A stretch of DNA of 21,112 nt from a virus: UHGV virus genome UHGV-0072395; one strand, given 5' to 3'. Position 1 is the first letter of the stretch. Each line of letters opens with the position of its first letter. The position numbers are program-made. Below, piece after piece: positions 9,001 to 15,000 of this stretch.

Positions 9001-12000
9001 CGCCTGATCACTTCCGCCCCTCCGCACAGGGGGATTCACCACAACAGAAATTTAACACCCGACCAGTTCTATTTCAACACAATACGGCTCTGTAGCCGAA
9101 GGTACCCTGGCTGGGTCTAGTGCTGATTGACGGGAATCGAACCGCCAGCACCCTGCTTACAAGGCAGGCACTCTAACTGCTGAGCTAAACCAGCAAATTC
9201 CTGCAACACTCTCACAGTGACTGTGCCCATGCCCTTGGGTTGCTGCCGCATCATTGCCGCTTATAACCGGTGCGCGTGTGGCGTTCGCGCTACCTTACCG
9301 GCATACCCATTTCCTCGTTAACCCTAACCAGCGGTATATCGCAGTTCGGACCTGCGTCTGGCTCTCTTCTCGGAGACTCGGGGCCACATCATGACTGTGG
9401 CTTGCATAGGCGGTCTGACCGCTCTACAGCTTCATTTTCGCCACCCACTCTCGCCAGCGAGCATCCCTACCCTCAGGACTCAGGCGCTGATCGTCAAAAT
9501 GATTAGACAAGGTCAGCGAATCCGGCAGTAACGCCCAGGCAACATAGAATTCGTGGGGCTCAAATTCATCGCCAGCAAACTGATAAGCGCCAACATGATA
9601 GACCTCGCAATCTTCCTCAAGCGCAATAATGTGAGCGATATGCCAGCCATCACAGGGATTCAGGAGGATTACCCAGCGGCCTTCAAGGTCTTTGGTTAGC
9701 TTTTCGCTTGCTGGTCTGAAGATAAGGGTTTCTGTTATCTGCTGGGACATTTCAGGCTCCAGAAACGACAAAAACCCCGCCGGAGCGAGGTTTTGATGAT
9801 TAAGCTGTGTGTCTAAGTGACCACTCTTAACAGGTTACGATAGTTTTTGCGTACGCGTTAGCTTTACTATATGTTTCAATATATGAAATTTCTTGCTCAC
9901 AGTTTCATTACACAGCAAACCATATATAAACTAATAATTTCAAGGTGATATTTATATGAGCGGATTCGCTTGTCAGGAATGCGGAAATGTTATAGACGAC
10001 ATCGAACAGAACTGCGAAGTTTGTGGCACAAGTCCCAATGTCGCAAGAATCGGAAACCAAAATTTCATGGTTGTCAATGCAATCACCGCTCATCTTGAGA
10101 AGGAGAAACTTTTTGATTATACAATTGGTCAGTTGTGGGATCTTACGACTCCAGTTGCTACGGAATTCATCACTAGAATTGAAAAAAAATTCCGACGGAA
10201 AAATAAATTCCATAACTATTTAGTCAAAGACAATCTGCCTAATTCAATACCTACGTTGCTATCAAAATTTAACGCAGGGACAATTATTTTTGAAAGCTTT
10301 TGCCAGACTGTAATGAACAAGCTAAAACTAAACTCTAATAACGAGACAGTTGTTTCGAAATTGGTTGGCGGAACGTTAGTGTTTGTACATTACAAATCTT
10401 TAAATGATGCAGATGATTTAGGAAAATTATTAATAGTAATGGTTGATAAACGTAGTGCCTTCGATTTTGAAGAGGGAAGTTTACAGCCTAAACGTCTTAA
10501 TCCAGTCAATACTGATGCTCTGCGCCAAGCCGCAATGTTTGATCTAACTTTGTTCGATGAAAGTTACCCAGATAACGACGGTCATTCCTATGTCGATTTC
10601 ATCCAAGGTAAATCCCAAAGTGATGTTTTCAAGGATTCGTTAGGCTGTACTCGAGATGTCGATAACAAGCGAAGTATTAATGAAATCTTTCGTGCTATAG
10701 AAGAGTTTGTTTCTTCAAATTCCTTAGGAAGAGCAGTTAGAGAAAATGCAGACATTGCCGTGAGAGATTTTCTTGACATTAAATCTAGAGATACTATTGA
10801 TAAATCTGTTAGCATTGATGAAGTCCAAGTTGTCATTGATAAATGTTTACCAAAAAAATCAAAATGCAAAGGAACTTTCAAAGATTTTGTCTATGAGAAT
10901 GAATTTAAAATAGACGCACAATTTGAACCCACTATATACTCTGCAAAACAGGCACTTACAATAAAGCTGACAGATGAAGACAAAAATTTCGAAATTAAAA
11001 TACTGCGAGGTGCAATTGGGGATGAAAAATCTAACAAACCAGTTATAATAGGCAGTAGAAATAATGAGGTAATCATCCGACTTTCCCCAGACGAATTTAA
11101 TAAGTTAATAAAATATGCAAATGAACAATAGTGATAATTTTGATAGAATCGCTGTTTTAATTTCATCTTCTGATATTACATCAGAAGATGGATTTGTTGT
11201 AATCAAATGCCCACAAGCCTACAATAACCATGAAAAATTAAATATACAATCCTTATTCTCTGGAATCGGCTATCTTAAATCCGATAGAATTTTTGAAGGC
11301 GATAAAGATATCTGGTTGGATAAGAGAGCAAATTTTTGGAGCGATGGACAGTGTCCTTTTTTTTCTAATTTCGAAAACTTTTGGCAACGCGTAAATGGCG
11401 CGGACAAATTACCTGATTATTTTTATATTGTATCTGATAAAATATCCCATTTAGAAGCGAAGGATAATAAAACACTAAATATATTCAACTTGTATTTTAC
11501 CTGGAAACAAATCCTTCTTAATTTATCCGATCATTTCGCGAATGAGTTTTACGTTTTTTTCTTGATGAACGATAAAGGTGGGGATAAAATTGAAATAGAG
11601 TCAACGCTGAACTTCAATCAACTACCAAAAATTGACATGCCTGCTGATAGCCTCAGCATTGCTTACAATCTTATTCAGAAACTTGATTTTGAAGATCTAC
11701 ATAAGTTAGAGCGCCGTTCAGTTATGCGTGCAACTCTTTATGAATTAACAAAATCAATGAATAAGGATAGTAATCTATTAAAACCCCTTATGGAACAAAC
11801 CGTTACATTTAGCAAAAAATATAATGAGCTATATGAAATATATACCAAGCGATTTTCGGTAAATAAACTTCTTAACGAGCTGGATGAAAAAAGCTTAGAG
11901 TTTACATCAAAAATAAATGAATTTATTTCCTCAAGTCAAACAAAAGCACTTACGATACCAGGAGCATTAATTGCAGTAGGTGCGTTAGCCAAGGCCGATG

Positions 12001-15000
12001 CCCCTCTTGAAGCAATTATCATTATTGCAGGGTTATGGATGATTAAACAAGTTAACAATTCCTCGAATGAAGTTTACAGAGAGGCATTTATAGCCTTGAA
12101 TAATAGACTAAATAATGCTTTCAAAAAATACCTTACCTTTCACAATGAACTTGAAGTAAAGAAAAGCGCCAGCGATATAAAAGAAGAGCTTTCAGATTTA
12201 ATTAATAAATCCAGCATTAGATTAAGTACTATTGACAGATTGGCATCTATGATGTTTTGGGGCGGAGTGGTTTACCTCATCGTAAAACTCTCTAATAATT
12301 ACCACCCTAAGATAATAAACTTTATCGAGTTTACCGTTACTAAATTATGCCAATATATTGCCCCATGAGTGACATGGGGCATAGTTAACTACTCATTTAA
12401 AACTGACATTAAACCATCAACAAAACCTAAAGCATTTTGAATTTTCTTCCTGATAGTTCCATCAGAACACTTCTTCTTTTTGGCTATCATTCTTAGAGAA
12501 ATCCCGATAACGAAGTGAGCAATTATTATTTCATACTCTTCTGGTTTATACTTGCGTAATCGAGCTACACAACCGTCAATCATGATCCCTTCATCATCAT
12601 CGCACTGTAGACGTGATTTTTTGCCGTGTGGCAGTAGCCCTTTAAATCCAGCGGCAACTGGTTGCCAGTCAACTCCATTACCGTCAGCTGCAGCCCACGC
12701 TCCCCAGCGGTCTAATACTTCGTACATATCACGCATTTAATTCTCCATACACTCATGCTTTTAAAATGACACCAATACCCATTACCCGATCCAGAAAACG
12801 CGCCCACAGCTCTAACTGCGTACCGTATTTCTGTTCGAATACTGAGACGTCGGCATGTAATTCATCGTGATGCACTCTGCACAGCGGTATCACGAAGAGA
12901 TCATGGGCCTTTGTTGCGGTTCCTCCCAGACCATGCCCTATTATATGGTGTGGATCGTCTGATGGTTGCCTACAGCATTCACAAGGCTGTGTTTTTACCC
13001 ACCGGGTATATTGCGGACATTCCCAACGCCGGCGCTTAGGCCGGAGCATAAACGACTCAGGGCTATCGGGATCAATTCGAATACTCAGAATCGGCTTGTG
13101 AACCTCCTGCGGGGGCTGGGGATCGATGTACCTGATATTCTCTGCAGACCAGTTGCGATCAACAAGGTCCTGCAGCATATCAGCCGCGGGAAACGACGGG
13201 ACGATGTCGCTTTCTTTGTACACCGATAGAAACGGCTCAACAGGTAGCCTTAAGGCATGTTGAGCCATCGTCTCTGTAATCGCATCTGCAATGCCGGATT
13301 TGACCGCCCACCAGCAAAGCTCAGCCATAGATAACTCGCGTTCTTTGGTATATCCCAGACCGATCAGCACGGTATCGATTACCCACTGGACCACATTCTG
13401 GTAGGCCAACTCGGAGAGCGTCTCCGTCGTTTGTTCACGTAACTCATTATCGCAATGCCAGCAAACAACTAATGCGCCAGGAAGATGGCGCATAGTGACG
13501 AATTCATGGTGATGATAATGTGAATGCGGGTACTGGCACTGTTTAACGTTATGCATCAGCCAGGCCTCAAGCGCATTAATGCCACCAGCTGCATTAATGA
13601 CTCTTTCATCCCTCATGAAAAAGCGAAGAATATCAAGATCCGCAAGAGGCTGGCGAGCATCAGGGATCCGCCCGGTTGGAATGTCTTTCATCCTTTCAGG
13701 CTGACGCTCTATCAGGACACGACCGTTAGCAAAAAGATGCATAAGCTCTCGCCCTGGCTTAAACAACACTACGCCGAGACGTGGCACAATTTCCGGAGTA
13801 AGCAACGCTCGCACAATGCCCCCTAAACCGTCAGATCTTTTAGCTTCTGCACGGCTTTTCCAACTTCAGCCATAGCATCTACGAACTCGTCAAACTTCCT
13901 GCTGGCCATTCCGTAAGCCTGAAGAATTTCCAACTTCAAGGGGTCGAGTTGCTTCTTAATTTCTGCACGATCCCCGGCTTTTTTCTCCGCTTCCTCTGCC
14001 GCTCTGATCAAGGCATCAGCCTGTTTACGTAATGCTTCCGGGGTTACTTCGAGCTGTTTATTCATTTTGCATTCCATCGTCGGCTGAGGAGGTGTCATAA
14101 CGGGCGCCACATAGTTGTGACCATATTTCGGGTGGTGCAAGGTTGTGGACCTTCCATCATCGATTACGCAGAGCATTCCGCTTTCACGGATAATTTCGAT
14201 CAGGGTCTCTTTGTCTTTACGATTGAGTCCACTGTACGCCGCCACTTTGTGGGTCAGGTGGGTTAGCGTGGCGCCCTCCGGTTGCCTTTCAACAAAACGC
14301 TTAACCCTGGAGAGGACTGGTTGCAGGTGTGGGGGTGTCATTCTCATCTTCATCCCATCACTGGCTAACAGTGCCGAGCAGCTTTAAAAGCTCAGGGAAT
14401 TTTGATTCAAAGAAATGTGGCTGAGTCTCCCGGGGATTCGCCGGACTGGTGATGTTTTTCCCGTACAGGAAACCTTTTGGCGTAACAGACCAGAATCTTT
14501 TCACGCCATTGATACCCGTTCGGCTGCGGCGCTCCTTCTGCTCAACTATGCCGTGGCCTGCCATAAGGTGATAAGCCTGGTTCGCGGTCATTCTGATGTT
14601 GTTAGCTTTAAGCAAAGCGCTGAGAGAAAGTGTTGGCCTGCTTGAACCGTCCAGCGCGCCAGCTGGCGCATCAATGGCATAAGAGGGCATTAAATCAGGC
14701 AACCCGGCCACCTGCTGAAGCTTCTGATACGCCCCGAGCTTTGACGAGTTGGAGAGATTGAGCATTCTGGCTGCAGACTCCAGAAGGATTACTCCAGCCT
14801 GGATGCGATCTGAATTGACGGTTACAGCTCCGGCAGTGTGCAGCGCGTCAAACGTTCTGATGACCTTCAGATTAAAAACAGCACTGATCCACATCGCGTA
14901 GGCATACACCAACTCACGGCAAACATATGTGCCTTGCTCATTGCCTCCACGGATGACACTTACAGGTTCTGATACATCCGAGTTGCTATTTTGCAACTCG

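Follow-up and report, generated by a model that had tools for sequence, protein, structure and literature searches.

A two-gene cassette at positions 9956–12368 of a 21,112-nucleotide stretch of the virus genome UHGV-0072395 (the window) is, judged by sequence, a new, diverged copy of DS-1, an anti-phage system made up of two genes. The cassette is a moron beside the Q gene of a lambda-like prophage from outside E. coli; a defence system validated only very recently is represented in this lambdoid moron slot by a diverged allele. Its second gene does not represent a new kind of toxin; it is the second subunit of a known system. We favour, with somewhat better than even confidence, a reading in which a nucleoid-associated sensor and a membrane-acting effector, the gene 2 product, would together bring about abortive infection.

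Cassette and genomic setting

The first gene (9956–11131, plus strand) encodes DS-1 subunit 1, a YejK/NA37-type nucleoid-associated protein of 391 amino acids that is the presumed infection sensor, and the second (11115–12368, plus strand) encodes subunit 2, the presumed effector. The second reading frame, called in the initial annotation as 417 amino acids from the ATG at 11115, is real, and so is its overlap with gene 1. This overlap measures 17 nt from that ATG and 11 nt from a second ATG at 11121, where the alignment of all gene 2 homologues starts and which, if it is the real start, yields a protein of 415 amino acids. Upstream of gene 1, and close to it, lies a promoter-like site (TACACA-18-AATAAT, 9909–9938, plus strand) with only a weak match to the consensus, at 9 of 12 positions; as the AT-rich stretch holds 20 promoter-like sites compared with 13.3 ± 3.9 in shuffled sequences, this site alone is no evidence of function. 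At the other end, an 8-bp GC-rich hairpin read from the sequence (GCCCCATG-agtga-CATGGGGC, 12360–12381) spans the gene 2 stop codon and falls between gene 2 and the convergent Q antiterminator gene (12389–12736, minus strand). We do not call it a terminator because a T-run is missing on either strand.

In its lambdoid prophage the cassette has Q on one side and the lysis cassette on the other, and the phage nearest to the flanking region is Klebsiella phage Kp4866-6 (84% identity over 60%). A location of this kind would suit a phage-specific gene for lysis timing or superinfection exclusion, as opposed to general defence. We consider this explanation highly improbable, given that the cassette and the late operon are transcribed towards each other and that the gene pair is also found in P2-like prophages, P4-like islands and integrase islands without lysis genes nearby. 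Furthermore, the reference pair confers protection from unrelated lytic phages on a cloning host that is free of prophages (PMC13092281). General defence is the preferred reading, and protection of the host against phage by the window cassette is predicted from the E. coli reference pair.

Family membership and relatives

Both proteins exceed the curated equivalog thresholds of the NCBIfam models for DS-1. The gene 1 protein scores 431.3 bits against NF053868 (DS1_1_antiphage; cut-off, 330) and is 55% identical to the validated DS-1A protein WP_000355468.1 (386 amino acids, E = 1e-155; BLASTP). Residues 63–375 match Pfam NA37 (84.5 bits; cut-off, 24.6), the protein is assigned to phrog_3767, and a sequence search of the PDB returned YejK (9be2) as its sole relative. 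An N-terminal CxxC...CxxC zinc ribbon can be read from the sequence (C6, C9, C20 and C23; 9971–10024, plus strand) and has weak matches to Pfam zinc ribbons; DS-1A is annotated with a zinc finger at residues 3–43 in DefensePredictor Table S8 (PMC13092281). Only 5 of 8 aligned family members have the ribbon, and it is therefore optional.

The gene 2 protein scores 371.6 bits against NF053869 (DS1_2_antiphage; cut-off, 315), with residues 51–387 covering profile positions 4–337 of 337, and is 42% identical to the validated DS-1B protein WP_000150292.1 (386 amino acids, E = 2e-94; BLASTP). It is assigned to phrog_5023, and none of its 112 homologues carries a name. No family was found for it in Pfam or PADLOC v2, a sequence search of the PDB with the family profile returned nothing, and a Foldseek search of viral structures gave no match at E ≤ 0.001.

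In all eight related loci examined, with identities between 92% and 21% and with Pseudomonas, Halomonas and Cognaticolwellia represented, an NA37 gene lies directly upstream of the gene 2 homologue on the same strand; the junction varies between 17 nt of overlap and 2 nt of separation. The pairing is thus obligate among these loci, and the identification of gene 2 as the non-sensor partner in a two-gene cassette, tightly coupled to gene 1, is supported. The closest relatives of the window allele are from Atlantibacter, Enterobacter and Pseudescherichia; among GTDB representative genomes there is only one relative at 70%, and a megablast search did not find the allele in any of 5,426 complete E. 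coli genomes.

Architecture and conservation of the gene 2 protein

Counted from the methionine at 11121, the gene 2 protein begins with an acidic alpha/beta domain (residues 1–215; 11121–11765, plus strand), which is the fastest-evolving part of the protein. This N-domain has a net charge of −7 and a pI of 5.1 (family medians, −10 and 4.9). It has no clear match among solved structures, and its resemblance to the LAGLIDADG homing-endonuclease/WhiA fold (an alpha-beta-beta-alpha-beta-beta-alpha core) is faint. By analogy with a system of like architecture discussed below, it is a candidate docking site for the nucleoid-associated protein.

The most conserved block follows (residues 226–312; 11796–12056, plus strand), in which a long stalk helix leads into a hydrophobic helical hairpin; an AlphaFold2 (AF2) model places helices at residues 227–276, 278–289 and 295–338. 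Median identity is 63% in this block versus 25% in the N-domain. Across 80 sequences the motif SSxQxKA[LF]TIPGALIA[VI]GAL[AV]K is nearly invariant; Q273, I279 and P280 are invariant. This level of conservation points to the hairpin block as an active functional element. The position of the C-terminal module is constant in proteins of approximately 370–450 amino acids, and a phmmer search with the module against 1.84 billion representatives found no case in which it is fused to other domains; the architecture is fixed.

The two hydrophobic stretches originally reported near the C terminus are present close to where they had been placed, with the first resolving into two short segments separated by a KADAP loop. 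Segment 1 (ALTIPGALIAVGALA; 11946–11990, plus strand) comprises 15 residues (276–290, or 278–292 in the 417-amino-acid numbering) flanked by conserved K275 and K291. Segment 2 (LEAIIIIAGLWMI; 12006–12044, plus strand) comprises 13 residues (296–308, or 298–310), with a conserved E/D at position 297 and conserved G304-L305. Segment 3 (LASMMFWGGVVYLIVKLS; 12240–12293, plus strand) comprises 18 residues (374–391, or 376–393) and lies where the last long helix ends. This conservation map provides concrete targets: the fast-evolving acidic N-domain, the near-invariant hairpin motif and the short segments.

Hydrophobic segments and the membrane

At 13–18 residues, the segments appear from their sequence to be too short for canonical membrane spans. 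The best 19-residue Kyte–Doolittle mean of the gene 2 protein is 1.69, a value that 36% of composition-matched shuffles reach, and the longest stretch that lacks both charged and strongly polar residues measures 15 amino acids. On the Hessa biological scale, the best 19-residue sum is +5.3 kcal, compared with +5.05 for the soluble Dam methylase of the window; the two holins of the window reach +1.0 and +2.0 and have uncharged runs of 24–31 amino acids. In a Wimley–White scan, buried core segments of the N-domain outscore the C-terminal segments. By none of the three scans can the hydrophobic segments be told apart from segments buried in soluble proteins. What lifts them above chance is not hydropathy itself, it is family-wide conservation of hydrophobicity: all three are hydrophobic at equal alignment positions in 80 homologues (median mean Kyte–Doolittle values of 1.65, 1.52 and 1.57), and segment 1 varies hardly at all in sequence.

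In the AF2 model the segments pack at one end of a helical bundle, where confidence is lower (pLDDT 61–65), so they could be buried core in a soluble state. The segments might then be no more than the core or oligomer interface of a soluble helical-bundle protein whose effector activity is cytoplasmic. We regard this as fairly unlikely. A C-terminal transmembrane domain was predicted by the authors of an architecturally matching system, type II PANGU (10.64898/2026.04.06.716658), and the invariant motif, rich in GxxxA/G, containing proline and flanked by lysines, is more typical of a membrane-inserting hairpin, as is the conservation of hydrophobicity at three positions converging on a single tip of the bundle. 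Gene 2 as an effector with a membrane module, which we prefer, is a plausible reading. It retains part of the initial description of a membrane-disrupting effector: the conserved C-terminal hydrophobic module and the designation of the partner in the matching system as a transmembrane effector agree with it, whereas hydropathy lends no support to transmembrane helices. The gene 2 protein should not be annotated as a simple transmembrane toxin.

Sensor, effector and proposed mechanism

Type II PANGU, described by Li et al. (bioRxiv, April 2026) as Pag2A plus Pag2B in PANGU-Ecu from E. coli, informs the division of labour between the two proteins (10.64898/2026.04.06.716658). In that system, the nucleoid-associated protein binds the transmembrane effector after phage-induced DNA degradation; the acidic 'DMK' domain of Pag2B binds Pag2A with a KD of 19 nM, and Pag2A-GFP leaves the nucleoid upon infection. 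Cells carrying PANGU-Ecu show Abi-like growth curves, and T4 denA mutants escape (10.64898/2026.04.06.716658).

Overlapping, translationally coupled genes and a pairing that held in every related locus examined would also be expected of a classical toxin–antitoxin system, with gene 2 encoding a constitutively toxic membrane protein that the gene 1 product neutralizes stoichiometrically. Neither protein matched toxin–antitoxin families in Pfam, NCBIfam or PADLOC, and the gene 1 product is no small, labile antitoxin but a DNA-binding NA37 protein of 391 amino acids. In PANGU-Ecu, defence requires both genes and no single-gene construct is toxic, and its authors state that it does not count as a toxin–antitoxin system of the classical type, the nucleoid protein being an activator (10.64898/2026.04.06.716658). 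Published single-gene data for a matching architecture led us to reject the toxin–antitoxin reading, to which we give very little weight; the earlier suggestion of a toxin checked by the first protein is likewise not supported, as the nucleoid protein is the sensor and activator in the matching system.

The roles might instead be reversed, with gene 2 encoding a membrane-anchored scaffold or sensor that recruits or licenses a partner (the nucleoid protein or a host factor) and growth being arrested by that partner, for example through effects on the nucleoid or replication. The lack of a detected enzymatic or pore-forming fold in gene 2 is compatible with this arrangement, and so is the fast evolution of its N-domain, a common trait of sensors that face phage proteins. 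In type I PANGU, however, the toxic enzyme is clearly the partner, with the nucleoid protein serving as sensor (10.64898/2026.04.06.716658), and conservation within gene 2 peaks at the hydrophobic hairpin and not at a surface that would track phage proteins. We judge the reversed arrangement to be unlikely.

Our preferred model, with gene 1 as sensor and gene 2 as effector, builds on the family membership, architecture, obligate pairing, genomic slot and conservation pattern established here. Defence, the need for both genes, single-gene non-toxicity, relocation of the nucleoid protein and N-domain binding come from the literature on relatives and would carry over by analogy; we infer the membrane action of the C-terminal module and its switching-on. 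The gene 1 product would sit on host DNA as a YejK-type nucleoid-associated protein and lose its DNA when the phage degrades the host chromosome. The DNA-free protein would then dock on the acidic N-domain of the effector, whose C-terminal module, a helical stalk tipped by the short hydrophobic hairpin and the third segment, would act at the inner membrane. A change of state in this module, by insertion or oligomerization, would damage the membrane, and the infected cell would cease to support phage growth, amounting to abortive infection.

More tentatively, and with considerable doubt, the C-terminal module may be a new kind of switchable membrane-damaging device, rather than a passive anchor, in which a soluble bundle hides the TIPGALIAxGAL hairpin until binding of the DNA-free nucleoid protein frees it. 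If true, this would be the first immune effector resembling a pore-forming toxin to be gated by loss of chromosomal DNA.

Comparison with known systems

The gene 2 protein resembles CorA/MRS2/ZntB channels and ClyA-type alpha-pore-forming toxins only by analogy, at the level of gross structure. Fold searches turned up no pore former as a specific match, and neither the fold match nor the signature (such as GMN for CorA) that would mark a CorA-type channel or a ClyA-type toxin was found.

Type I PANGU pairs Pag1A with Pag1B, a GRel toxSAS (10.64898/2026.04.06.716658). The sensing logic is alike, in that genome degradation frees the nucleoid protein to bind a DNA-mimicking domain of the effector. 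Its effector is a soluble alarmone synthetase without a hydrophobic module, whereas gene 2 has such a module and shows no detectable similarity to that effector.

Type II PANGU is closer. Both it and the window have a YejK-like nucleoid protein gene in a two-gene operon (defined there by a gap of less than 40 bp, and overlapping in the window), together with a partner whose N-terminal domain is acidic and whose C-terminal module is hydrophobic ('TM'). Where a transmembrane domain is predicted in type II PANGU, gene 2 carries three conserved segments of 13–18 amino acids with soluble-like hydropathy. Type II PANGU occurs in E. coli and is spread over phyla on mobile elements (10.64898/2026.04.06.716658). 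PANGU-Ecu blocks T4, a phage that is absent from the DS-1 rows in part 1/9 of Table S7 of the DefensePredictor study. On the grounds of shared architecture, the window cassette probably belongs to type II PANGU.

DS-1 (working id D390) was reported by DeWeirdt et al. in the DefensePredictor study (Science 2026; PMC13092281) as WP_000355468.1 plus WP_000150292.1, represented by models NF053868 and NF053869. When cloned in MG1655, the E. coli pair counted as a replicated defence system, with −log EOP values of 7.6 for Bas1, 2.7 for Bas26 and 1.7 for Bas3 and T3 (PMC13092281). The window shares its gene order (first a YejK/NA37 protein with a zinc ribbon, followed by a partner of roughly 400 amino acids), the layout of gene 2 as N-domain, stalk and hydrophobic hairpin, with 79% identity in the stalk-plus-hairpin block, and the prophage slot, convergent with Q and adjoining DUF968. 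The two differ in sequence (55% identity in gene 1, 42% in gene 2 and only 28% in the gene 2 N-domain), at the gene junction (an overlap of 11–17 nt in the window compared with a 2-nt separation in DS-1) and in distribution: the reference DS-1 occupies the Q-convergent slot in 106 of 5,426 complete E. coli genomes (approximately 2%), unlike the window allele, which is absent from them. The use of one Q-side slot by diverged alleles suggests that DS-1 alleles are exchanged at a fixed prophage position.

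A diverged DS-1 cassette in the prophage

The gene at 11115–12368 (plus strand, 417 aa; gene 2) follows a gene on the same strand at 9956–11131 (391 aa; gene 1), and together they form a cassette with a GC content of 33–35%, compared with roughly 50% in the flanks. We found no family for gene 2 in Pfam or PADLOC v2; its product matches NCBIfam NF053869 (DS1_2_antiphage; 371.6 bits, cut-off of 315), and that of gene 1 matches NF053868 ('DS1_1_antiphage, nucleoid-associated anti-phage protein'; 431.3 bits, cut-off of 330). The gene 1 product also has a match to Pfam NA37 (YejK family) and a CxxC...CxxC zinc ribbon at its start. 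In every pair compared, gene 2 has diverged more than gene 1: identities are 42% versus 55% to the DS-1 reference pair, over the full lengths, and 92% versus 98% to the closest related prophage (L004).

DS-1 carries the working id D390 in DefensePredictor (Science 2026, PMC13092281), where the pair consists of WP_000355468.1 (391 aa, zinc finger and YejK) and WP_000150292.1 (404 aa), in which HHpred found no domain; the second subunit is treated in a figure only. The pair was cloned in MG1655 and entered as a replicated defence system, with values of −log EOP in the screen table that include 7.6 for Bas1, 2.7 for Bas26, 1.7 for both Bas3 and T3, 1.0 for T5 and 0.9 for T7; T4 is absent among the DS-1 rows in part 1 of 9 of that table (PMC13092281).

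The window belongs to a lambdoid prophage, in which the cassette lies between the gene for a Q-type antiterminator (12389–12736, minus strand) and the lysis genes. The minus-strand genes of the window include replication and regulatory genes, two DNA methyltransferases, RusA, a KilA-N regulator, a DUF968/HNH protein and Q, and two holins, an endolysin and the small and large terminase subunits are found further along. As the initial annotation had noted, the start of gene 2 overlaps gene 1. The open reading frames share 17 nt, perhaps 11 nt, as the homologues of gene 2 align from the second methionine (ATG at 11121), from which residues are numbered here. Approximately 40–50 nt into the coding sequence of gene 2 lies an inverted repeat (11162–11192, plus strand; 13-bp stem, TTCATCTTCTGAT-attac-ATCAGAAGATGGA) that could influence coupled translation of the gene.

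A conserved hydrophobic module in gene 2

Using an alignment of 80 sequences, AlphaFold2 produced a confident model of the gene 2 product (pLDDT of 85, pTM of 0.67), with an alpha/beta N-domain from residue 1 to approximately 215 followed by helices at 227–276, 278–289, 295–338, 344–393 and 396–413. Confidence falls to a pLDDT of 61–65 near the hairpin, and the N-domain modelled by itself reached 94. Neither profile searches of the sequences in the PDB nor Foldseek against viral models returned a match for gene 2. The N-domain is acidic (net charge of −7, pI 5.1; family medians of −10 and 4.9). Conservation differs sharply along the protein, with a median identity to the window product of 25% for the N-domain, 63% for the stalk and hairpin (226–312), 38% for residues 313–393 and approximately 11% for the tail.

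Hydrophobic stretches had been noted near the C terminus and read as helices of a possible membrane-disrupting effector. The stretches are present, although the first resolves into two short segments, at residues 276–290 (ALTIPGALIAVGALA) and 296–308 (LEAIIIIAGLWMI), separated by a KADAP loop; the other is at 374–391 (LASMMFWGGVVYLIVKLS). On hydropathy alone they are unremarkable. The top 19-residue Kyte–Doolittle mean (1.69) was reached by 36% of composition-preserving shuffles, and buried segments of the N-domain outrank the C-terminal segments in a Wimley–White scan. On the Hessa biological scale, the best 19-residue window scored +5.3 kcal, comparable with the soluble Dam methylase of the window (+5.05), and the two holins scored far better (+1.0 and +2.0). 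Uncharged runs extend over 24–31 aa in the holins versus 15 aa in the gene 2 product. The scans thus resemble those of a soluble protein and do not demonstrate transmembrane helices; that the segments form the core of a soluble bundle is a live alternative.

What gives the segments their significance is conservation. Hydrophobicity is kept at all three positions among the 80 homologues, and the block SSxQxKA[LF]TIPGALIA[VI]GAL[AV]K hardly varies, even where identity in the N-domain is around 21–25%. The short segments, the conserved lysine in the hairpin loop and the near-invariant sequence suggest a monotopic or switchable hairpin more than conventional membrane-spanning helices. When the C-terminal 200 residues were searched against 1.84 billion representatives with phmmer, 145 proteins were returned, nearly all of them 370–450 aa long and aligned at approximately residues 200–400, indicating that the module has not been shuffled onto other domains.

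Homologues and a shared slot beside Q

A set of 5.8 billion proteins contains 112 homologues of gene 2, none of them named, chiefly from Enterobacterales and extending to Pseudomonas, Halomonas and Cognaticolwellia. The top match is 92% identical, so the exact window allele is not on record in this set; it was also absent from the 5,426 complete E. coli genomes searched. Among phages, Klebsiella phage Kp4866-6 is the nearest, and among genome representatives the nearest copy is from Pseudescherichia vulneris (70%).

An NA37 gene lies directly upstream of the gene 2 homologue in all 8 related loci examined (92% to 21% identity), where the two genes overlap by up to 17 nt or are separated by up to 2 nt. 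The DNA around them is mobile or rich in defence genes, with a P2-like prophage, a P4-like island, an integrase island with a helicase, VspR and HsdM, and loci with neighbours that carry PIN_12 or SMEK domains. At L007 (5424–6545) and L008 (7580–9221), remote family members adjoin candidate defence genes, one encoding a PIN_12 protein (a domain also in the validated DS-5) and the other a SMEK_N protein (a domain in DS-27). The zinc ribbon of subunit 1 (9971–10024 in the window) is present in L004, the DS-1 reference (L009), L005 and L007, and missing from the homologues in L001 (Pseudomonas), L002 (Halomonas) and L008; this patchy distribution marks it as an optional accessory of the family.

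Reference DS-1 (at least 99% identity) occurs in 106 of the 5,426 E. coli genomes, always beside an 'antiterminator Q family protein'. The gene order in E. coli NCCP15648 (L010; NZ_CP009050.1, 2344251–2346643) is that of the window: DUF968, Q, convergent DS-1 pair, tRNAs and lysis genes. The reference and window alleles occupy one slot, in convergent orientation with Q and adjacent to DUF968, despite protein identities of only 42–55%. L004 shares an unbroken 89.6% nucleotide identity with window positions 9763–13823, spanning the cassette, Q and DUF968, and differs in its lysis-side DNA; neighbouring lysis-side cargo varies between prophages. The slot looks like a fixed hotspot for swapping alleles of one defence system.

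Other features of the window

Between the cassette and the holins are an Rfam match to the STnc100 sRNA (8847–9071, minus strand; 90 bits, gathering score of 47) and a tRNA-Thr(TGT) (9120–9194, minus strand). The STnc100 match and a terminator-like hairpin on the same strand (8877–8858) probably mark the leader and terminator of the late transcript, which would place the cassette, an ORF of unknown function and the tRNA all between Q and the late leader. A 115-aa ORF (9424–9771, minus strand; match to phrog_17248, of unknown function, E = 7 × 10−59) directly adjoins the cassette, has no Pfam family and has a terminator-like hairpin (9794–9771) just upstream; L004 has an N6/N4 methylase and a TerB-like gene in its place. 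A second low-GC stretch (37–40%; 8000–8460) contains a 39-aa ORF (MSNFLMLALAVILFLVSLVFFVSYLKDKKKLKNTFKRRR; 8339–8458, plus strand) that has no Pfam family and encodes a single, strongly hydrophobic helix (19-residue Hessa sum of −5.5 kcal, KD19 of 3.16) and a basic tail. The product resembles a small membrane peptide and may act as a small toxin or as a factor in lysis or exclusion. The two adjacent methyltransferase genes (16145–18286 and 18225–19175, minus strand) encode a C5-cytosine methylase (713 aa, in a stretch of 60% GC) and a Dam-like N6-adenine methylase, and may provide anti-restriction or epigenetic functions for the prophage.

Comparison with PANGU and DS-1

The sole mechanistic work on the architecture of a YejK-like protein with an effector is the PANGU preprint of April 2026 (10.64898/2026.04.06.716658). 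It defines type II PANGU by a YejK-like nucleoid-associated protein, Pag2A, and a transmembrane effector, Pag2B, whose N-terminal 'DMK' domain is acidic and whose C-terminal domain is transmembrane. In the E. coli example, PANGU-Ecu, both genes were required, no construct was toxic and cultures behaved like abortive infection; T4 escaped through mutations in denA (endonuclease II). Pag2A–GFP departs from the nucleoid on infection, and Pag2A binds the isolated DMK domain with a KD of 19 nM (10.64898/2026.04.06.716658).

By analogy, the gene 1 product would monitor chromosomal DNA and, once a phage destroys that DNA, would bind the acidic N-domain of the gene 2 product; we infer that binding could then switch the conserved hydrophobic hairpin module to a membrane-damaging state. 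Of the initial annotation, an effector that is co-expressed with gene 1 and has a hydrophobic C-terminal module is a reasonable part. Its proposal of a toxin restrained by gene 1 goes against the published results for single genes, where the nucleoid protein serves as an activator and not as an antitoxin (10.64898/2026.04.06.716658). The cassette agrees with type II PANGU in pairing a YejK-like nucleoid-associated protein, in a two-gene operon, with a partner that has an acidic N-domain; where Pag2B has its transmembrane domain, the gene 2 product carries the three short hydrophobic segments. The probable link to PANGU is thus one of architecture. As DS-1, it is of a kind already known and very recently described; what is new here is a diverged allele.
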